Shown here: positions 11,723-29,142 of the stretch, one piece after another
Numbering within the stretch: position 1 is the first letter of the stretch
How the letters are laid out: each line of letters starts with the position of its first letter
The notes under the pieces: model-generated
What the model saw: only the letters and a program-made list of their open reading frames with translations
What the model was told of the DNA's origin: nothing
Database searches by the model: none
DNA from: an uncultured Candidatus Peribacteria bacterium
Lineage (GTDB): Bacteria > Patescibacteriota > Gracilibacteria > BD1-5 > UBA2023
Reading direction: 5' to 3'
Length of the DNA stretch: 29,142 nucleotides
NCBI GenBank assembly: GCA_964446905.1
Contig: CAYUQQ010000003.1
Coordinates: forward strand, 1-29,142
Program-made: the position numbers and the translations under genes

Positions 11723-12793
11723 CTATTTTATCCATCTTCTAATAACAAATTTCTTTTTTCATTCAGGTAATTCTGTATCATAATTATTTAATCATATTTT
11801 GCTTAACATTAAATTTTCTAAAACAGGTTTTATTTTTCTAATTTTTACTCAAGAATTAGATCAAGAAAATTCTGTGTCATAATTAATGCGACTTTCTATT
11901 AAATTTTCTTTGTCTAAAATTATCATTACATGTCATTTCCATACTATTAAATCCAAAGGCTCTATTTTTTTTATAATATCATCAACATTAAGTCATTCTA
12001 TTTCAACTCATGTTCAAAAATAAACTAATTTACTTGTATTCCTTGGAGTATATCAATTTGTAGCAAAAAATAAAAGGCCACTACAATCAAATCAATTAAG
12101 AATAAGTTTATTTTTTAAATCATCTCATATTTTAATTTTTGGTTTATAATATTTTGCAAACTCCGGAATTCATCAAAGTATATTACCTCACCAAATATAA
12201 GAATATCAATTTAAACTAATAAGATTATTGATAATTTCTTCTTTTGTTGGCAAAATAATAGTTCTTTCAGAAGGTATTGTATTGTATGTTTTTATAAATC
12301 TTGCATCTATAAATAAATCTCAATCAAAATCATATTCGTTTGATTGAATTTTATAAATTTTATTATTTCAATCCATTATAAAATCTTTAATAATAACAGT
12401 TGTTCAGCTAAATAAAACAGATTCTATAGGATCGATTTGTCCATATTCATCCAAAATTGGTCAATATCAATTTCAATAAAAAGTATTAATAAAACTTCAT
12501 GTATTAAGAATTGGAGCATTGGAAATAGTTTTTCAATATAAAAATTCCATTTTTTCTATTTTAGGTAATATATAATTTATAATATTTTGTTTTTCTTCAT
12601 TTCAAATAAATTGAGTTTTGTATTTATTTAATTTATAAATAATTTTTGTTTTAAACAAATCTCATTTTTTATAAATAATTTTTTTAATTTTATCAACTTT
12701 ATCATTTAAAATTTTATCATTTTCTAATGATGCATATGCTGTGAAATTAATAAAAACAAAACAACAAAACAAAATAAATATTATTTTTTTCAT
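11723..12793 (-). CDS. Secreted NlpC/P60-family peptidoglycan endopeptidase, 356 aa
   Basis: Signal-peptide-like N-terminus (MKKIIFILFCCFVFINFTAYA); YSYIWGGN...GFDCSGLL (catalytic Cys); WKGHVMI (His); LIESR. Confidence 0.85.
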
Positions 12794-14246: not shown

Positions 14247-17200
14247 CTACTTAAATAAAATTTTTTCTTTAAAGGCGTTTAATAAACTAAATAACTTCTC
14301 TCTTTCATCATAATTAAGTAAATATTGTGGTAAATTCACTTTTTTACCATTATCTTTCGTTATTTCTAACAGTTCTCATATACAACGTAATCGAAAAGCA
14401 AAAGCAGAAAGTTCTTTTACAATTTCTCATTCTAAAGGAGTAAAAATATTGTTTTTAATCAAAAAATCTATTTTACCTCCTGATCATAATACGTGCGCAG
14501 GTAAAGATCAAGATTGTTCTTTAAGTTCTTTTTTATCTTTAAGTAAACGAAAGATTAAAAAATCTATTTTAAAATTTATTGTTCTCTGAAGAGATATTTT
14601 TAAATTTTCAAGCATTTTTCAAGTACCAAGCGAATTATATAATGTATTAAAGCTCTCAATAAATGAAACCCCCTTCATTGATTTTATCTCCAAAGGCACT
14701 TGAGCAACTGAATCGTAATATTGAGAAAATTCGTTTTCAAAATAAAGTTTAAGTGCGTCTTCTCTAAGTTTTTGTTGAACAGAATCTTTAAAAAAAGGGC
14801 AAGTACTACTCATAGATGTAGGTTCAATTTCATGAAAACCACTAAAATTATTTAAATCCAAACTGAAGCTTGATATTTTTGTCATTGGTACTATTCATTT
14901 TCATCACTTGTTAAATTTACCAAAATCTATTCATCAAGATCATTCCCAATTATCTCTAATATTTAAAATAATTTTTTCTATTATATTAGATACTTCACTT
15001 ATTTGGTCTTGTGTCATATTTCTATCATCAACAACTATAACAAAGTCATTATCTGAATCAAAACCGCTTTCCATTCTACCAATGCTTCATATAAACATAG
15101 GACAAATTTTATCTTTATACTTTTCGTAATTTGGATACTTTTTACACATTCTTCACCAAATATTTCTTAAGCTTCTTTTTTTGGTATTTATTAATGTTTT
15201 TTGGATTTTTATTATTGATTGTATATCTAATTTTTCTGAATTTTTCTTAAATTTTCGGAACAAAATCTGATTAACAATATCTAAATATTTATAATAATTC
15301 TTAGATCATTTCGATATTCATAAATCTTCCAATTGTCTAATAAATTTTTTCATTATTTTATTATCTGGATTAACTTCGACTCTTTTGCCAGGTGCGGATC
15401 TTTTTATAAAAAATGTTTCTTTTATGCTTTTTATTCTTTTATCTAAAGTAAATTCTTTTACTGATTTAAGAAGCTCTGGAAAGTTATGCGAATTTTTTTC
15501 ATACCAGTCAGTTGATTTTGTATTTAAATGATTAGTATTCAAAAATTCTACCAATTGTACCATATCAAATAATTTTTGATCTGGATTATTTTTTTCATAC
15601 TCAAAAGCTGCATCCATTACTATTTTATGTTTTGGAGATTTTACTACAATACTATTAGACTCAGGTACAGAAGGCTTTAAATAATATGAGTAAACCGCGT
15701 CGATAATATCCATAGAATATCATTTATAATACAAATCATGATAAAACACCTTCATCTGATCAAATTCTTCTGGTGAAAAAAGTATTTTTTCTGTCATTTC
15801 ATGTATTACTGGAATAAAAAATCCATTGATTGCAATTGCTTTTTTTTGACTATTTAGTAGATCATTAAAATCTATAGATCCTCTGTTATTTATAATTATC
15901 GCTGTAATTTCTGTACTAGGAATTCAAAGATGAATACATTGATGAGCTATTCACATACTAAAACTACTATTTTTATCTCCATTAAGACCATATATTACAT
16001 TGTCATTTATTAGTATTTTTCAATAAATTCGATTTACGTTATGACCATGAGGATTTCAATATGATTGTAATCTTTCTGATAAATTTTTGTTACTTAGCTT
16101 TTGTATTTTTTTAGTTGTACATACGTGTGATCAAAAATTGTTTTCTTGAAAAAATGCCATTTCACCAAGTAAAGCATCGCATAATGTACCAGTATCTAAA
16201 ATTGAAAGAGTTACGTCTGGAGGTCCTACTTGAGATACACTAGTTTCAAATGGAATAGCAAGATCCACAAAATCTTCTTTGGTTTTTGCTTGTTTTAAAT
16301 TCTCGTATAATTCACGATTATATTTATCTGCTTCTATTACTACCTCTTTCATTCTTTTTAAATTAGATTTAATTTTTAATTCCTCTTCTTTGTCTATATT
16401 ATAATCAATATTATCATCTTCAAAGAATTCTCAATTTTCTCAAAAAAAGAAACTTGACAAATCTTGCGTTATACCTTCTAGTCAGCTTGTCTTATATTTT
16501 TTTATAGGCATTTCAAGTCTACGCAAATAATATTTTTTTAATTCTTCACTACCAGACAATACAAGTATTTCTTCAAAATCTCTTCTTACCACCAATTCTG
16601 TTGCTTCATTTATATTAATATTTTTTGATTGTGTTAATTTTATTATTTCATCAACAAATAGTTTATATTTTGAATCTCTTTCAGGTAAGTATTGATCCAA
16701 AAAAAGAGATCTTCTATCAATTATAGAATAATCACAACTAGAAAATATTCTTTTAATCTTATCTAATTTATTTTTTATTTCTTTCATTATTTGATCATTA
16801 TTTTTATTAGTTTCTTCATTTTTTTGTTTAATATATTTAATTAAATTTTGTATGACAATGTATTTTAATTTTCATAATTTTTGAGGATTATTAAATAATC
16901 TTTCAAGAGAAGGATCAATTTGAATTATTGAATCGATAATTAGTTTATATGGATCACAATTATTATTATTTAGAAACTTTTTAATTTTATTAAACTCATC
17001 TTCATCAAGAAAAAATTTACAGGTTGCTATATGTCTTAAATTAAGACAATTTATCTTAAATAAAAAATTATATGAGTAATATTTTTGGCAAATATCTTCA
17101 TTTTGTAGATTATCTTCCATTTTCAATGCAATTTTATCCTTATAAGATGACCACAAAGGTAATGATTTTATATGATGTATATATTCATATTCTGGTATTT

Positions 17201-19346
17201 TATCAATATATTTTATCCAGTGTGATATTTTTTCTTCTTCTGTATAAAAATTTTCTGGTATTTCTGAGTAATGTTGTATAATTGTTAATATATCCTTTTC
17301 TATTCATATATCCCAGAAGTCTTTATTATTTTTAAATTGAGACAATAAGTTCTCAGGAAGATTTGTATATTTTTCTAACAAAAAAGTTGGACAACTATTA
17401 ATAATATTTGGTGTTAAAAATTCTAATATAATTCACTTTAAATCAGAAAATTCTAATAAGTATTTAATGTCTTGACAATTTTTTCTTTTAAAAGCCTTTT
17501 CAGTTCCTGTTTGTAAAGATGTTTTAAAATCGGAACTATTATAATCAAATTTAATATTATTTTCGTCCAGATATTCAATTATTATTCAAGCACAATTACT
17601 TTCTCCATTATTAATTTCTTCTAATAATCTTTCTTTTAAAATTTTTTTTAGATCAATCTCAAATACAATATTATTTTCCTCCATGTATTTAATTATGCTA
17701 AACAATATTTTTGTATTTGTTTTTCAACTAATAGTTAAAGCTTCTTTATATATTTTATTATAATCAACTTTTATTCAATAAGATTTTACTAATTCAAATA
17801 TTTTTCTGTTATCAATAACTGGGAATTTATTCAAGGGAAATCCATACTTACTTAATATTTTTATCATTCAATTTTCGCAAAAATCTATTATATTTGGTCA
17901 TCAAAAATTTAAACTTATACCATCTGATTCAGCAATTTTAATAATTTTTTCTACAAATCATCCTATTCCAGATTGTAGAGATTTTTCGAGCTCAAACTGA
18001 TATATTTTTTGAATATCAAAACTTATTCATTTGCTTTTAATAAAGGTTATAATTTTATTTATTTCTTTTTTCCACAAACTTAGATAATCACTTTCCTCAT
18101 TAATAATTATTTTTTCTATATCACAGGTCTTATCAATATACAGCTGAAAAGCCTCATTATAATCTATAAATATTCCATTTTCTAAATATTGCTCAATTTT
18201 TTTGGTAAATTCATTCCAATTAAAAACTTTCTTAAATTCACTTATGAAATAATTTTGTATAAAATCTTTATTAAAATCAAGATAGACTCCTACTAATTTT
18301 GCATATCAAGCCAATTTATCAATATATCTTCTTCCGTTTTGAATATTTTCTTCAAATAATTCCTGAAAAACTTCTTTTATATTTAAATCAATATTATTTT
18401 TTTTAAAACAATCAATTAAAGTTTTAATATTATCAGATTTATTATAATAATAAGTGATTTCATTTTTAAAACAATTTTTAAAACAATCTTTAAATATTTT
18501 ATATAAATCAACATCTATTTTTTGTTTTTTTATTAAATTTAACAATTTTGAGATATTCTCTAATTTATCATATTCATTATATTTTAAATAAAAATTAATA
18601 TTTCTTTCAAGTCCTGTTGTACATGAATTTTTTGCTATATTTTCTTGATAATCAACTTTATATCAATTCTTGACTAATAAGTCAAGATATTTTGTATCAG
18701 CTGATTTTTTAATTTCACACCAAATAATAGAATTGTATGATGAAATTGCTATTGGATCTGTTAAGTCAATATTAGTCTTGTTTGTTACATTATTAATAAT
18801 GTCATCAAGCTGTTTTTTATAAGTATTTATTATGTCTAATGAAAATATGTCTATTTTAGATTTTATAGAATTTTGAATAATTTCTTCAATATTTAATTCT
18901 GATAATTCTCCTTCTTTAGTTCAATTATTAGCATATTTAGAAAGAGATTGAACTACTGAAAAAATAATTTCAATTAATTGTTCAGATAATTTTGGATATT
19001 TTTCTAAAATTTTTTTAAAAATTTCATCAATAAACATATTATAGATATCTTTTAAAACCTTATCCTTAAGATTATCATCAAAATTATTAAATATTTTTAA
19101 CTCTTTAAAAGTTTTTGCTGCTAAAAACGGTTTCATAATTTCAAATAATTTATCAAACATTGTATCTAAATCATCTTTATCTGTAATAAAATCAATGACA
19201 TTTGTGTTAGAATTTTGTAAATTTTCAACTTGATTTTTTACTCATTTTATTGTTTCATTTAATTGAGATGATCAAGAATCTTCACTTATATTATTAACTT
19301 CATTCTTTTTGTTATCTATTGGATCTATATTTACTCTTTGTTTCAT
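14247..19346 (-). CDS. Giant multidomain protein, 1699 aa, with a C-terminal GlnE/GlnD/DUF294-like nucleotidyltransferase
   Basis: Single code-25 frame from ATG 19346 to TAG 14247 that joins seven same-frame track ORFs; GSIGRMESGFDSDNDFVIVVD (G-x11-DxD) at 15089-15045 followed by a helical domain (FRLRCIGELL). Confidence 0.85.
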
Positions 19347-19473: not shown

Positions 19474-20070
19474 ATGAAAAATTTATTTAAATCATTATTA
19501 ATGATAAGTTCTTTTATCGTTATTTGAACAGTTTCTGCTTCAGTAGAAACAAATACAGGTACTGCCACAAATGTTACAACAAATACTACCACTACTACAA
19601 GTTTAAATACTACATGAACAATTGTAACATTAAAAACTTTTACAGATAATCAAAAAGCAGCTTTAAAAACTTTTACAGATAATCAAAAAGCAGCTTTAAA
19701 AACTTTTACAGATAATCAAAAAGCAGCTTTAACAAATTTGTTAACTAAACAAAAAGAAATATTAAAAAATACATGAACAGGTAGTACAACAAAACTAAAA
19801 ATAGATCAAAAAAACGAATTAGCTAAATTTAAAATAGATCAAAAAAACGAATTGGCAAATTTTAAAATAGATCAAAAAAACGAATTAGCTAAATTTAAAA
19901 TTAATCAAAAAAACGAATTGGTTAAATTTAAAAATGCAGATGTTATGAAAAAAAGTAAAGAAAAAATACAAAAAACAATAAAACAATTGGAAGATCAATT
20001 AAAAAAAGCTCAAGAAGAATTAAAAAAAATTGAAGGATTACAAAATAGTATGACCTGATCTACAAATTAA
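19474..20070 (+). CDS. Secreted Thr-rich, 11-residue-repeat coiled-coil protein, 198 aa
   Basis: Signal-peptide-like N-terminus (..FIVIGTVSA/S), Thr-rich linker, (LKTFTDNQKAA)x3, (KIDQKNELAKF)x4, C-terminal coiled coil; TAA at 20068-20070. Confidence 0.85.
19630..19732 (+). repeat. Three perfect 33-bp in-frame tandem repeats
   Basis: ttaaaaacttttacagataatcaaaaagcagct x3. Confidence 0.95.
19798..19929 (+). repeat. Four imperfect 33-bp in-frame tandem repeats
   Basis: aaaatagatcaaaaaaacgaattagctaaattt and variants x4. Confidence 0.9.
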
Positions 20071-22687: not shown

Positions 22688-23425
22688 ATGGATTTTTTAA
22701 AATATCATGAAATATTTAAAAAAAATTTAAATATTAAAGAAAAACCTAATGAATATGAATTAAGTCTTTTTTTAAAAACTCAAAAATATATGAGTTTTAT
22801 TTCTTGGATTCCTGGTTTAAATTTTATTTGAGTTTGTGATAGCTTATCAATGTATGCAACAAAAGAAAAATGATCAGATATTGATTTGTTTATTATAACA
22901 GAAAAAAATAAACTTTGGTTTGTGCGAATTTTGGTTACTTTTATTTTTCAAATTCTTTGAGTTCGTAGATATAAAAACAATATAAAACATAGATTTTGTT
23001 TGTCGTTTTTTATTACAGAAAATGCAATGGATTTCTCAAAAATTGCAATAGAAAATGATATATATTTATATTACTGGATTTATTATCTAAAACCAATTTT
23101 AAACAAAAATAATACTTACGAGCAATTTATAAATACCAACAAAACATTATGAATAATAGCTCATATTTTACCCGAAGATAATTTAAAATATTTAAAAATA
23201 CAAAAATTTAAAAATGAGGAACAACAGCAAAAGAAAAAATTCGTTTTATCTATTTTTGATTTTTTAAATTCTTTTTTTAAAAAAATTTTTATTAGTCGTA
23301 CATTAAACAAAAAAGAAAATTTATCCAACTCTTCTGGAATTATAATTTCTGAAGATATGTTGAAGTTTCATGATAATGATAAAAGATGGCAGATTAGAGA
23401 TAGAATTTTAAAAAGTGTTTTATAA
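22688..23425 (+). CDS. Pol-beta-superfamily (minimal-type) nucleotidyltransferase-like protein, 245 aa
   Basis: WIPGLNFIGVCDSLSM...KGSDIDLFII..KLWFVR; RFCLSFFITE; C-terminal LKFHDND. Confidence 0.65.
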
Positions 23426-23450: not shown

Positions 23451-25286
23451 TTATTTTCAAGAGGATCAAAGTGCTGTAAATCAAGCAGCTCAAGCAGCAA
23501 TCAAAAAAGTATTCCATGCTATTCAAATCGTAATAATTGCTCATTTAAAGTAACATCATAATACTAAAGAAAATATCATAGCAGCAATAATTCAATAAAA
23601 AACTTTTGGATTTTTTTCTTTTATATTTCATAGTGCTTTGATAGCATCTTCTCATAACTCTAAAGACTTAAGCAATCATTTATATGTTCATTCATTAATT
23701 TTTGAACCTAAATATTCAGCAATATCTCAAATATATTTATTGGTTGGAGAATTTGCAAATTCAAGTAATTTGTCAGTTGTTACTGATATTGGTTTTCTTT
23801 TCATAATTATAAAAAGAATTGTCATATATAATTCAGAACACTCTCCTTTAGTCATTGAATCAAGATCTGTCTTTCAACCAGATACTGCATATAATGTTAA
23901 TAATTCTTTCATAGTAAAGCTATCTCAATTATTAAATTCGCCAATATGATCTTTAAATCAAAAAGCTCACATTACATTTAATATATCTTTTGAAAAACCT
24001 CATTCTTTTGTAATTTCTGTCAAAAAATTTTGAGCTTGTACATCTCTACAAGAACTATTTATTAAAGTATTTTTTCTATAAAACACAACTTCCGAATCTC
24101 AATCTTTTGTTAATAAAATTTTTTCAACAATCTCATGATTAAATCATTTTGATTTTAAAGATTCAATTTTATCTCAAACCAAACCACCATAAGTACCATT
24201 AGAATTTTTAGAAAATACCATATTTTGTATTTTTCATACAACATCATTCTTATTAGACCAATCAATTCACTCTATAATACCTTTTATTTTATCTATTTTT
24301 TCAAAACCAATTCATTTATATAAAGCATTTATTGATTCAAAAAGAGGGCGAGTTTTCCAATTTGGAAGAATATTACTTAAATTTTCATTTATCCATTCTT
24401 CATTATCTAAAATAGACTCTATTGCTAATTTTGCTGCTTTTTGGGTTTTTGGATCTTCTATTTTAGCAATATTTAATTCTTGAGGACAATTTTTATAATA
24501 TTGTAATTCTTGAAAAGATAAATTTTTTATAGTATCAGAATTAATTATATCAATAACTAATTTATTTGCATCATCCTTTTGTTTTTTTTCATCTTCTCAA
24601 AAAGTCCCATCCCAAGCTGCCTTACCTATAGAATCCCACCATCAATCAAATTTTACATTATTTTTTTTCCAATAAATATGATCTATCATTTTCGTATAAG
24701 AAAGATCTTTTATTGTTTCTGTTGTTTCTTTTTTTGTATCTGCTTGTGTTTCTTGAATATCATATTTTTGATCATCTCAAGATCATGTTTGTTCTCAATC
24801 ATTTTTTTGTGCCTCTTCTCAATGATTTTCAGGAACTTCAATATCAAAAAATTTAGCTAAAAAAGGGAGTTTTTTAGCTAACAATGTTCCTATTTTTTTT
24901 ATAAATTTATCCCACATGTCTCAAAATTTATCCCAAATTTGACCCAATGTATCCATAAAACCAAATTTTTCTGCAGCCGCTAAAGCAACTCATCATACTC
25001 ATGTTGCTCAAGCTACTTTTGCAACGGCTCCTTTTAAAGAAGGCTTAATGATCTTGTCTTTTAATTTAGGATCTTGTTTTTGAAAAGTTTCAACTATTTC
25101 TTGAGCTTCTTTTGGAGTTAAACTGTCTTTTAATTTATTCCATTTATCATTAGTTTCTCATTTTATTCCATTTATTACATTTTCAACTTTTCATGCTAAA
25201 ACATTCTTGCTTTTTTGTCTTAATTCAGAAATCAGCTGTTCTGGAGTTTGTATATTTAAACTTTCTTTTGATGTTTCTGCTGTCAT
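23451..25286 (-). CDS. Hypothetical membrane protein, 611 aa
   Basis: Open code-25 frame; Gly/Ala-rich segment (GAVAKVAGATGVGGVALAAA), WDKF repeats, C-terminal hydrophobic hairpin. Confidence 0.8.
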
Positions 25287-25358
25287 ATTAATTATTGTAA
25301 ATAAATTTTATTAATAATACCATATTTTGTATTAAAAAACAAAATTTTGTATAATTTT

Positions 25359-27167
25359 TTAAATTATATTATATGCATTATTTGGAAAAAAAATATTTAC
25401 ATCAAATAAATCTTTAAATTCTTTACAAAATTTATCATCTAATAATTTTTTAATTTTAATTTTTTCTTTTTTTGTTATTGGTTTTATATAGAGAGTGTTT
25501 CATTCTAACATTATAGATCAATTAAAACTTTCTCAATTTTGTGATATTTTGAAATGAAAAAATTTATAAAGAATATTTAATTTATTTTTTTCATTCATTT
25601 GTAAATAAATTTTTTTAATTTCATTTAAATTTAAGTTTCCTTTTTTATCAATAAATCAATCTTTTTTTAATTCATTATTTAATATTTTTTTATTTTTTTC
25701 AATATTTTCTAAATTAAAAAAATTTTTTACTGATTTTTCTACAAATTCTTTTTTGTATGTTTTTCCATTTGGAAAAACATATTCTCATGTTTCTGCATTA
25801 AGATATTTTGCTAAAATTAGTAAAATTGCCGTTATTGTGACTGTTAACGAAGCTACTCTTATTATTCAAACGGTTTTCTTTGCAATATATATAGATCCTA
25901 TAATAATTGATGTTATTGCGATTAGCTCAGGCCATTCGGTACTATGAAAAATTTCTACAAAACCTTCTGTTGTATTTTCAATAACTTCATCAATCTTATC
26001 TCATATCACTTGTTTAAGAATATTTTTAACTCAAGCAGGTAAAATATCTATATCTTTATATAAAGAATTTTTAAATATTTTATCGTAAGTTTCTCCTCTT
26101 GTTTTTATATCTTTTCATAATATTCACCAAATTTTTATAATTAATATTCAGTTTTCAACATCATTTAGTTTGTCATAATCTGTTTCTCATTGAGTTATAA
26201 TATAAAGTTCCAATAATTCTTTTATTGTTAAATCATTTTTTTGATTATTAAAAAATTTTTCAAATTTTTTTCTGTTGTTATTTTTTCAATTATCAAAAGA
26301 AAAATTATTTACTATTAAATTTTTAATTTTTCCATAAAAAGGAAATATTTTTTTATTAAATATATCTTTATCATCAGAATTTAAATGATCTGTACTTATT
26401 TCTTTTAAATTATTTTGTAATTCTCCAACCTTTATATCTTTATTTGTATGAGCAAAAATAAGAATTCTATCATTTAATCATAAACTAGCTGCTTTTTCTT
26501 TTAATTCTCATTCTCATTCTCATTTTTGTAAACTTACTTTTTTTATTAATTCTTCGCGAAAATTATTTAAACCATTTAATCCAATTTGAAAATTTATTTC
26601 TTTTAATTTCCCAAGTATTCATAAATCAGAACTTAAATTTAAAATTAAATCATTAATTTTTAAATTTAAAGGATCTTCACTTTTTGATTTGTATGATTTA
26701 TTTATAAGTTCTCTTCAATATCATGTTGATAAAATTTTACAAGCATAAAACAAAGCGTCTTTATTTTCATTCTTAAATCAATATTTAGAAGGAATTAAAT
26801 TATCATAATCTAATTTTGATAAGTCATCTATTTCTCTAAGTGTAAGTTTTTTAAATTTTTCATCTACAAATAATAATTGTATTTTACTAATAATATCTTT
26901 ATCTAAAGATGAATTGTTTTGTGTTTTTATTTGTATACAAAATGTTTCTACAAAAACTTTTACAGAAGTTTGATATTTAACATTATTTTTTACTTCTTCT
27001 AATTTTTGTTTTGTTTGAATATTGTTTAAAAATTCATCTAATGTTGGTCATTGGGGTTGTTTTGGTTGTGTAGTTTCTACTGGCACTCTATATATAGAAT
27101 CTCATCCCAATTGAGGAAGAGAAGGATCTATTAGTGTTCGATATATATTATTCTTTTCTGCCGCCAT
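25359..27167 (-). CDS. Hypothetical membrane protein, 602 aa
   Basis: Code-25 frame from ATG 27167 to TAA 25359 (ends and C-terminal third checked codon by codon, middle read through); hydrophobic hairpin LIAITSIIIGSIYIA...IIRVASLTVTITAILLILA. Confidence 0.75.
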
Positions 27168-27187
27168 ATTGTTTTTTAAATTAAAAA

Positions 27188-29142
27188 TTAAGCTCACCAT
27201 TTGACAGCTTGTCAGGTGGTGTCTATGTTGTCCAAAAACTCTTTTTGTCTTTTGTATTCAAGGATCATATTAAGTATATTTACAAATCATGTTTTAGTTT
27301 TTGGGTCATCGAGTAATTTGCTGTAAAAAGTATATTCTGAATTACAAAGAGTTTCTGTTTGGCCACTAAAATCATAACCATCATAATAGTCCAATTTCTG
27401 AATTTCACTATATCCTGGTAATTTTCATTTTGTAAGTATTGGCTGATGCTTAATCATTCTATCAAGTATTGATGTACAAAGTTTTTTATAAGCATCTGGA
27501 TATTGACTTTTCTTAGATTCCTCATTAATTTTCAATAATAATCAAATATATAAATTATTATTTTCTGTTTTCATATTTCTTATTCCTTCAGCATCCAGTT
27601 TCATATAATCACATATATTATTAATAGTATATTTTATATCATCATTTTTAAAATTTGGTCTTTCTATTTGATTTAAAATTGCTTCTATTAAAGCAAGTTT
27701 AAAAATATCAAATCATGTAAATTCTCCATCTCAAATCGCAGATAATAGCTTTGATTTAAAAATTTCTTTTTGTTGTTCTTTGTTATAATAAATCCAATCA
27801 TCACCTGTATATTCAGAACTATATTTTCAGCTTTTATATTCTCAAATTATTTTTATAAAATCTTTATTAAGATTATTTTTATATTCATCTACTTTATTAT
27901 TCCAAAAATTAACATCTCTACCATATGCAGCACTCATATATTCTCTTGGATTAGTGCTCATATCTACTTTGCCAAAAACTCAAAATCATTTTGCTTTATC
28001 AGATATATCATGGGCCACTCAATAATTAGTCACATAATGCATAATCATAGATTTTTTATCTGTCATTCATAGATTTTTTTCAGCCCAATCTTCTCTGTCT
28101 GGAGCAGTTTTCCAAAATAATATATCTGCTTTTTTCGTAGTTCAAGCAAAGCCAAGAGATGAGGCTCATATTCATCAAAGTACCAATCAAAGAGTAAGTC
28201 ATCCAATTTTTCACCATACTCATGGCATTTTTGAAGCAATTGTTGATCATAATCGTACACCAGCTTCAAAACCTCAATATTCTAATCATACTTTTCATAT
28301 AGAAACTAAGTCTTGACTATTGTGATGAATATTTTCGAAAAATACAGGTAAAAATACAACATGCATAGCATTTCAAAATCAAGCCAAAAGCCTACTCAAA
28401 GTAATTGATTTTAATATAAATTGATCTTTTGTTAATATTTTTGTTTTAGAAATAGCTTCATTTATAGTTTTTTGATTAATATCTGATTTTATATCTCAAG
28501 TTAATTTTAATTGTTTCTTCAAATACTCAGTATATTTTGTTTCTTGTAATACAATCTCCTGATTGGTTCTAATTTTTAAATCTTCAAATTGTTCTTTTGT
28601 AATTGGCTTATGTTTTAACCTTTTAAGAATTTCGGAATATTTTTCATAAGTTAATTTTTGTGTAATTTTTTTAAGATGCTCTATTCTTTGACTATGAGGC
28701 AATATTTTTTCAAACTTCATTATAGAAATATCAAGAAAAACAGATTTTGATTCCAATAATTTAAGTGTTTTTGATTTTAAAGCTTCTTTTGTTCATGTAA
28801 ATGTATTTTTTATATCAAAACTAACATTTTTTATTCCCTCAGGAGTTTCATAGTATATTTTTTTTATTGCATAAGTTCATGCTACTCAAGTACTAGCAAA
28901 AACCAAAATAGCAGCCCCTCAAAAAATTTTTTCTCATTTTAACATTTCTTCTTTTTCTTTTTTACTTTGAATCACTTTTTCATCTTTATCCTTTTTTGAC
29001 AATTTTTTATTTTCATTACTACTGTTTTGTTTTAAAAATTCCTCATAAGAAGAAACTGGTTTAATATTAATTATACCACTTTCTCCTGTTTTAAGAGTAT
29101 ATTTTAAAATATTATTTGAAATTTCTACTTGTATTATTTTTT
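27188..29142 (-). CDS. Hypothetical protein with glycine-zipper membrane segments (5' end outside the window, >650 aa)
   Basis: Open code-25 frame from the window edge to TAA 27188; IFGGAAILVFASTGVAGTYAI and PGVWGKIGGLTLGLVLGGIGASSLGFAG segments. Confidence 0.8.

Follow-up and report, generated by a model that had tools for sequence, protein, structure and literature searches.

A fixed-site operon of large, fast-diverging proteins with predicted membrane hairpins in code-25 Gracilibacteria

The contig CAYUQQ010000003.1 of an uncultured Candidatus Peribacteria bacterium (assembly GCA_964446905.1; Patescibacteriota, Gracilibacteria) carries the greater part of an operon of large genes that sits at a fixed chromosomal site and is diverging and turning over far faster than its neighbours. 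The stretch analysed here, hereafter the window, is this entire contig (29,142 nucleotides (nt); C3 in our numbering) of an 898-kb assembly in 112 contigs (G000). A first-pass annotation made from the sequence letters had proposed an undescribed, closely packed set of genes for membrane-associated proteins in a bacterium using genetic code 25, and the results below support that proposal. Gracilibacteria and related bacteria are believed to grow on other cells and, to our knowledge, the ways in which they hold or tap their hosts are almost entirely undescribed. The operon offers a concrete and testable candidate, in that it has a fixed locus, encodes proteins with basic-tipped hairpins, changes faster than the rest of the genome and has no relatives among curated families or solved structures.

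Results

Five large genes read in code 25

Under translation table 11, there is no open reading frame (ORF) of 150 amino acids (aa) or more across the 29-kb window. With table 25, in which TGA encodes glycine, long ORFs run throughout and the window is densely coding. The three large, co-oriented minus-strand ORFs listed by the first-pass annotation are real under this code:

23451-25286, minus strand: P0001 (F1a), last gene of the operon, family F1; code-25 ORF of 611 aa with 37 in-frame TGA codons
25359-27200, minus strand: P0002 (F1b), fourth gene, tandem F1 paralogue; 613 aa, 23 in-frame TGA codons
27188-29140, minus strand: P0003, third gene, family F2; at least 650 aa, 5' end open and running off the contig end at 29142, 33 TGA codons

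The GC content of the window is 16-29%. At the value of ~22% used for a chance estimate, TAA and TAG make up ~8% of random codons by our own arithmetic, and a 600-codon open frame has a chance of ~1e-21, so that frames of this length are not random. The three genes contain 93 in-frame TGA codons in total, some of them at conserved positions: G443 and G471 of P0001, invariant in a 9-sequence alignment, are both TGA-encoded, as is G374 of P0003, which falls in an invariant Gly column of its family alignment. Frames that are open with TGA as a sense codon, and TGA on conserved Gly columns, place these genes among those of code-25 Gracilibacteria. The closest DnaK relatives come from metagenome-assembled genomes titled Candidatus Gracilibacteria, Peribacteria or Patescibacteria group, at 72-88% identity.

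The genes are closely packed. The spacer between P0001 and P0002 is exactly 72 nt (25287-25358), as first described, while the 20-nt gap given for P0002 and P0003 holds only if P0002 starts at its second ATG (27167; 602 aa, N-terminus MAAEK); a start at the first ATG (27200) would produce a 13-nt overlap instead. The second ATG is probably the true start, as MAAEK fits the M-A/T-x N-termini of relatives. A scan for promoters and terminators (47 promoter-like sites against 55.8 expected; two terminator-like sites, both on the plus strand) was uninformative because the DNA is so AT-rich.

The cluster was expected to continue past the window, and it does. The last 55 nt (29088-29142) are identical to positions 1-55 of contig C17 of the same assembly (L164); this looks like an assembly-graph overlap between contigs that abut. 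The P0003 frame extends ~65 codons into C17, up to an ATG that is its true start, and two further genes follow:

C17:255-2483, minus strand: gene 2, ORF of 742 aa
C17:2521-4752, minus strand: gene 1, ORF of 743 aa

The unit consists of five co-oriented, tightly spaced genes, in the order gene 1, gene 2, F2 (P0003), F1b (P0002) and F1a (P0001). In a relative, G021, the gene that opens the syntenic run matches gene 1 (E = 2e-24). The first-pass annotation had suggested inspecting the upstream genes for a VirB4 or FtsK ATPase, a pilin or a lytic enzyme; what lies there instead are these two large proteins without a family match. Among the ORFs of the window and C17, we found no secretion ATPase, pilin, lytic enzyme, integrase or phage gene in the operon or its flanks, and saw no capsid, terminase or tRNA-linked boundary.

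Families of the operon and their public relatives

A short conserved stretch is common to P0001 and P0002 (BLASTP E = 2e-4), and the F1 profile matches both, P0002 over 25785-27017 with E = 5.6e-98. Judged by these matches, they are tandem paralogues, which we call family F1. In the alignment, the N-terminal third of P0001 has no counterpart in P0002, which carries an added C-terminal domain of ~145 aa. Homologues of P0001 in genomes of the same GTDB family reach E values down to 3e-129. P0003 is a member of a separate family, F2. Probabilities from hhalign were <1% both for F1 against F2 and for F1 against gene 1, and the families of the cluster are therefore not detectably related. A C-terminal motif of gene 1 that resembles the conserved F1 motif by eye was discarded, being unsupported by hhalign.

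With F2 as the query, HMMER returned 176 proteins at E <=0.001 from 1.84 billion representatives. Many are fragments (<200 aa; 50-300 aa range), pointing to gene calling with TGA as a stop, and the full-length ones have Trp at the conserved Gly columns, i.e., they were called with TGA as Trp. These patterns point to systematic mis-translation of F2 in public data; the family would have gone unnoticed so far because public sets hold it as fragments or as TGA-to-Trp translations. A word-index protein search returned no match for P0001 or for the F1 alignment.

Hydrophobic hairpins with basic tips

Hydropathy was scanned in 19-residue Kyte-Doolittle (KD) windows with a threshold of 1.5, and structures were predicted with AlphaFold2, whose confidence is given as the predicted local distance difference test (pLDDT). 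The resulting features are as follows:

P0001 residues 559-603 (23478..23612, minus strand): C-terminal hydrophobic helix-turn-helix hairpin with a basic tip, from hydropathy; AlphaFold2 helices at 560-579 and 583-600
P0001 residues ~230-500 (23787..24599, minus strand): predicted all-alpha globular domain, including the motif common to P0002; pLDDT 85-97
P0001 residues 87-105 (24972..25028, minus strand): Ala/Gly-rich, mildly hydrophobic segment; KD >=1.5, low pLDDT
P0002 residues 426-469 (25794..25925, minus strand): hydrophobic hairpin, from hydropathy; aligns with the F1 C-terminal hairpin
P0003 residues 278-334 (28139..28309, minus strand): Gly-rich helix-turn-helix hairpin with a basic tip; helices at 278-303 and 308-334

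The model of P0001, built on the 27-sequence F1 alignment, has a mean pLDDT of 67.7 (<50 over the N-terminal 185 residues) and is mostly helical, ending in a helical hairpin. That of P0003 (19-sequence F2 alignment; mean pLDDT 67.5) is beta-rich over residues 1-145, followed by helices. The helical content reported earlier agrees with these models, and the hydrophobic or Gly/Ala-rich segments reported with it were recovered at residues 559-603 of P0001, 426-469 of P0002, and 72-90 and 312-333 of P0003.

Of the 27 F1 sequences, 25 have a C-terminal hydrophobic segment (KD >=1.5; mean for the family 1.8), which takes the form either of two helices joined by a turn of 2-4 residues or of a single helix with a short basic tail. 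Summed over all 27, the residues of the turn include 34 K/R and 0 D/E, and the 16 residues preceding the hairpin are net acidic (38 K/R vs 54 D/E). The most conserved block of F2 is its Gly-rich hairpin, the turn of which holds 43 K/R and 2 D/E over 19 sequences. This hairpin is mildly hydrophobic, with a family mean KD of 1.34 and a window above threshold within the aligned hairpin in 9/19 sequences (anywhere in 13/19). By hydropathy, then, F1 has an integral membrane hairpin and F2 a weaker case of one. A hairpin of this kind also lies centrally in gene 1 and its relatives; gene 2 shows a single hydrophobic stretch.

The N-termini of all five proteins are free of hydrophobic stretches, and no signal peptide was seen on any of them by eye or hydropathy (no dedicated predictor was used), in agreement with what had been reported for the two complete proteins of the window. 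The first hydrophobic window lies at residues 87-105 in P0001 and at residue 426 in P0002. The P0001 segment could be a first membrane span; a window above threshold occurs in the N-terminal half of 12/27 F1 sequences, in seven of them at about residues 82-109.

A fixed site with variable contents

Within the GTDB family of this genome, the F1 profile finds matches in 31 of 89 genomes and 13 of 24 genera, and the F2 profile in 20 of 89 genomes and 9 of 24 genera. In a class-wide sample of 301 genomes, including 16 other home-family and 20 sister-family genomes, F1 was matched in 4/16 and 5/20 of these, respectively, and in no other family. F2 was matched in 6/16 home-family genomes and elsewhere only by two marginal short matches (E = 2e-4 and 8e-4). 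As judged by these profiles, the range of F2 is a single GTDB family and that of F1 two families within an order; the cluster is not conserved across Gracilibacteria and Absconditabacteria, the range over which the first-pass annotation had proposed to test it. Half of the genomes with an F2 match (10/20) have F1 next, no more than 3 kb along the same strand. At the nine loci first fetched, F1 and/or F2 stand in runs of 3-5 co-oriented ORFs of ~600-1100 aa with short spacers, and F1 lies inside a large co-oriented gene run at 8/9 same-family and 3/3 sister-family loci.

The 3' boundary of the locus is formed by a convergent gene:

22688-23425, plus strand: F3, core gene of 245 aa without a Pfam match

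F3 was found in 81 of the 89 same-family genomes and adjoins the large-gene run in G018, G019, G021, G023 and others, often with dnaJ next to it. It marks a conserved boundary of the locus rather than a demonstrated functional member of the system. Examination of the F3 neighbourhoods in 13 genomes without an F1 match revealed a large co-oriented ORF run convergent with F3 in eight (G002, G012, G013, G016, G043, G086, G088 and G100) and F3 without such a run in five (G007, G014, G054, G055 and G072). The eight runs comprise mostly other sequence families, with some relatives of gene 1.

The turnover is apparent even within the genus, where cluster proteins are 27%-36% identical over partial lengths or have no counterpart, and the gene line-up differs. 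By comparison, neighbouring F3 and a 356-aa protein are 73% and 76% identical to their counterparts.

Several further observations concern this locus. A family of ~910-970 aa with several hydrophobic segments stands in the place of F1 next to F3 in regions among L165-L175, from the eight genomes with a run but no F1 match (members L167_1814, L168_2821, L169_10756, L170_1620, L174_9058 and L175_10788), which suggests alternative cassettes at one locus. F3 itself is apparently fused into a 402-aa ORF in G014 and has a Gly-Ser-Asp-x-Asp stretch that we take to be reminiscent of nucleotidyltransferase motifs. The 356-aa protein (11723-12793, minus strand) has a hydrophobic N-terminus and no Pfam match; its counterpart in G001 sits 1.4 kb from the F1 gene, so G000 and G001 are rearranged around the cluster.

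Searches for known relatives

Lineage-specific genes of no known function are common in these genomes, and the proteins of the operon match no described family. Pfam held no credible match for the three window proteins (a few at E = 0.0096-0.2, all under gathering cut-offs) and NCBIfam nothing. There was likewise no credible family match for the two C17 proteins, nor, among 35 proteins from the clusters of relatives and 23 homologues from databases, for any but a downstream G022 protein, which matched PG_binding_1. Nothing in PHROGs fell below E = 0.004 (only two function-less families at E = 0.005-0.008), and PADLOC models of anti-phage defence gave no match at E <=0.01 for six proteins. Against PDB sequences, the best E value of the F1 and F2 profiles was 0.05, for a phage upper collar protein that we discarded. 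The genes are syntenic in relatives and match no ordinary family, and neither of the two outcomes that the first-pass annotation had named as counting against it was therefore observed.

Structures were compared as whole-chain models. Foldseek found no match at E <=0.001 for P0001 and P0003 against the PDB (best E >=0.45) or for P0003 against BFVD. The best Z scores of a wide VIA-align search (6.2 for P0001, 7.5 for P0003) fell on generic helical hairpins, at background level. The likeness to pore-forming or translocon-type proteins drawn by the first-pass annotation was not upheld, as no colicin, ClyA/XaxA or translocon match was found by fold or sequence. XaxA (6gy6_A and 6gy8_A) appeared only at Foldseek E = 2.1-3.6 with a probability of 0.02, and IpaD at E = 1.4, for models with a mean pLDDT of 67-68. 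No Pfam family of pore-forming toxins (colicin/ClyA/XaxAB) matched the three proteins at E <=1 or the 35 proteins of relatives at E <=0.01. The BFVD search with P0003 listed a few tape-measure or minor-tail proteins, at E = 0.1-0.6 and TM-scores of 0.04-0.11.

VirB4 (PF03135) was found in none of five genomes searched (G000, G018, G021, G022 and G023). T2SSE ATPases (PilB/PilT/GspE) occur in all five, none adjoining the cluster: the nearest is ~22-35 kb away in G018, G022 and G023, >200 kb away in G021, and on other contigs in G000. By sequence and, as far as the whole-chain models show, by structure, the system appears to lie outside every known kind, and any function for it is putative. We did not find the operon described in the literature searched, including PMC11452946, PMC8080830 and PMC12857230, the supplementary tables of which could list the families.

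Other features of the neighbourhood

The cluster lies among der, dnaK, trpS, mnmA, lemA and htpX-like genes. Upstream of gene 1 and divergent from it are genes for an ATPase, a LemA protein and an M48 peptidase:

C17:4948-6213, plus strand: AAA_14/DUF4143 ATPase, by a Pfam-type family match

This ATPase has five copies in the 0.9-Mb genome (C17 and contigs C11, C35, C38 and C74); a copy adjoins the cluster in G000 and lies near F1 in G001, G092 and G315. Its closeness to F1 may reflect weak linkage or, given five genomic copies, chance.

Two other ORFs of the window stand out. Only 4 kb from the cluster, a 1699-aa ORF (14247-19346, minus strand) encodes another large unmatched protein, with only a weak match to a DUF294 nucleotidyltransferase near its C-terminus (E = 0.0013, below cut-off). 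A 198-aa protein without a Pfam match (19474-20070, plus strand) has a hydrophobic N-terminus, a Thr-rich stretch and two 11-residue repeats, one present three times and the other four times, and is probably a secreted repeat protein. DNA sequencing runs holding at least half of the sampled words belong to three studies labelled wastewater or bioreactor metagenome; there was no RNA run among the listed sequencing runs matching sampled words.

Discussion

A host-facing envelope complex as a tentative reading

We tentatively favour, as possible though short of probable, a lineage-specific hetero-complex embedded in the membrane of the cell envelope and facing the host or prey. The hairpins of the operon proteins would pack together in the cell membrane, with their basic turns on the cytoplasmic side, in keeping with the positive-inside rule, by which basic loops lie on the cytoplasmic side. 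Since this rule puts the tips inside, the domain at residues 230-500 of F1a would lie outside, anchored on its N-terminal side by the Ala/Gly-rich span and on its C-terminal side by the hairpin. What is exposed might then face a host or prey cell, or phages, and surface exposure would explain the fast divergence, the exchange of gene families from one genus to another and the tandem duplication seen here. At the surface, the complex may serve in adhesion, as a contact-zone scaffold or as a conduit. If the proteins do face the host, their variable parts could mark host specificity.

Several points weigh against this reading. An N-terminal span is missing from P0002, and a topology with the domain outside would thus require another export route for this protein. 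Among F1 proteins, the N-terminal Ala/Gly-rich segment passes the threshold in a minority and is modelled at low confidence, and the F2 hairpin is only mildly hydrophobic, with a conserved acidic residue in its first helix. No F1 match was found in 58 of the 89 same-family genomes and no F2 match in 69. The lack of a signal peptide on all five proteins would fit a location of their bulk in the cytoplasm just as well. Fast divergence, finally, is also typical of coiled-coil scaffolds under relaxed constraint.

The alternative that stands up best, which we nonetheless consider rather unlikely, is a scaffold on the cytoplasmic face, hooked by its hairpins to the inner leaflet or through the membrane and forming an internal skeleton, e.g., of an attachment pole or of division. 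Besides the lack of signal peptides, with first hydrophobic windows far from the N-termini, a hairpin topology keeps both flanks on one side of the membrane. The long helical and charged regions, the lack of a linked secretion ATPase and the chromosomal setting amid housekeeping genes also agree with a scaffold. The proteins could then be likened to those of the mycoplasma terminal organelle, which would be analogous and not homologous, and the operon would encode a new bacterial membrane skeleton. However, the basic turns (34:0 and 43:2 K/R to D/E) would then sit on the outer face, contrary to the positive-inside rule, and turnover of gene content within a genus would be unusual for a core cytoskeletal function.

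It is quite unlikely, in our estimate, that the proteins are exported alpha-helical pore-forming or translocon proteins, whose hairpins would enter a host or prey membrane to form a feeding conduit. A run of genes for helical proteins that each have one hydrophobic hairpin and lack a Sec signal would suit this role, as would the hypervariability of these proteins, which fits a host-facing function. Were they inserted from outside, the basic tips would reach the cytoplasmic side of the target; the tip is the only feature that may hint at insertion from outside or at an exposed domain. A feeding role would also be in line with the lack of many biosynthetic pathways in the candidate phyla radiation (CPR) in general, as stated in the main text of PMC8080830. 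Nonetheless, there is no significant fold match to ClyA/XaxAB, colicins or type III translocators (best Foldseek E >=0.45; VIA-align Z 6.2-7.5). Export machinery is not linked to the operon either (VirB4 in 0/5 genomes, T2SSE >20 kb away), nor does the operon hold a lytic enzyme. We regard as decidedly doubtful the specific proposal of a new contact-dependent conduit, in which 4-5 hairpin proteins, leaving the cell without the help of any secretion ATPase now known, would enter the membrane of prey or host as a feeding or attachment pore, with variable parts setting the host range.

Cargo or a remnant of a mobile element, be it a prophage with tape-measure-like proteins or a defence island, is highly improbable. 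Gene content does vary at one locus, the multi-copy AAA_14/DUF4143 ATPase adjoins the cluster in G000 and is near F1 in G001, G092 and G315, and a few tape-measure or minor-tail proteins appear in BFVD (E = 0.1-0.6). Those matches, however, have TM-scores of 0.04-0.11, and the ATPase with its five copies may be near by chance. PHROGs yielded nothing below E = 0.004 and PADLOC nothing at all, no integrase, capsid, terminase or tRNA-linked boundary was seen among the ORFs of the window and C17, and the site is fixed beside core genes in many genera.

Comparison with known systems

The operon proteins resemble alpha-helical pore-formers and translocators of the ClyA, XaxAB and IpaB/YopB class in being mostly helical, with a single hydrophobic hairpin, partners encoded side by side and no Sec signal. 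They differ in lacking a significant sequence or fold match and a linked secretion system, and in being larger and four or five in number. Chlamydial Inc proteins are small to medium proteins with a bilobed hydrophobic hairpin, exported by a type III system. Compared with this general description, the operon proteins likewise have a two-helix hairpin with a short turn as the sole membrane element, lack a Sec signal and belong to fast-evolving, lineage-specific families. Inc proteins, however, are smaller and type III-exported, and we know of no type III system in these genomes. Phage tail tape-measure proteins are also long and helical with Gly-rich hydrophobic segments, but the BFVD comparison (E >=0.1, TM-score <=0.11), the lack of a PHROGs family and the lack of nearby phage genes set the operon proteins apart from them.

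Closer in lineage are two systems of Patescibacteria. The patescibacterial type IV secretion locus, which the main text of PMC12857230 defines by VirB4, VirD4, VirB6, VirB8 and VirB2-like pilins, is, as the operon would be, a multi-gene envelope system tied to an epibiotic lifestyle in this phylum; unlike that locus, the operon encodes five proteins none of which matches a type IV secretion family, and VirB4 was found in none of the five genomes searched. The giant surface proteins of Vampirococcus lugosii, 1392-4163 aa long and with known interaction domains (WD40, PKD and others), are thought to act in host contact, according to the main text of PMC8080830. Both sets are large membrane-associated proteins of code-25 CPR relatives, but those described here are 600-750 aa long, carry no known domain and are encoded in a dedicated operon.

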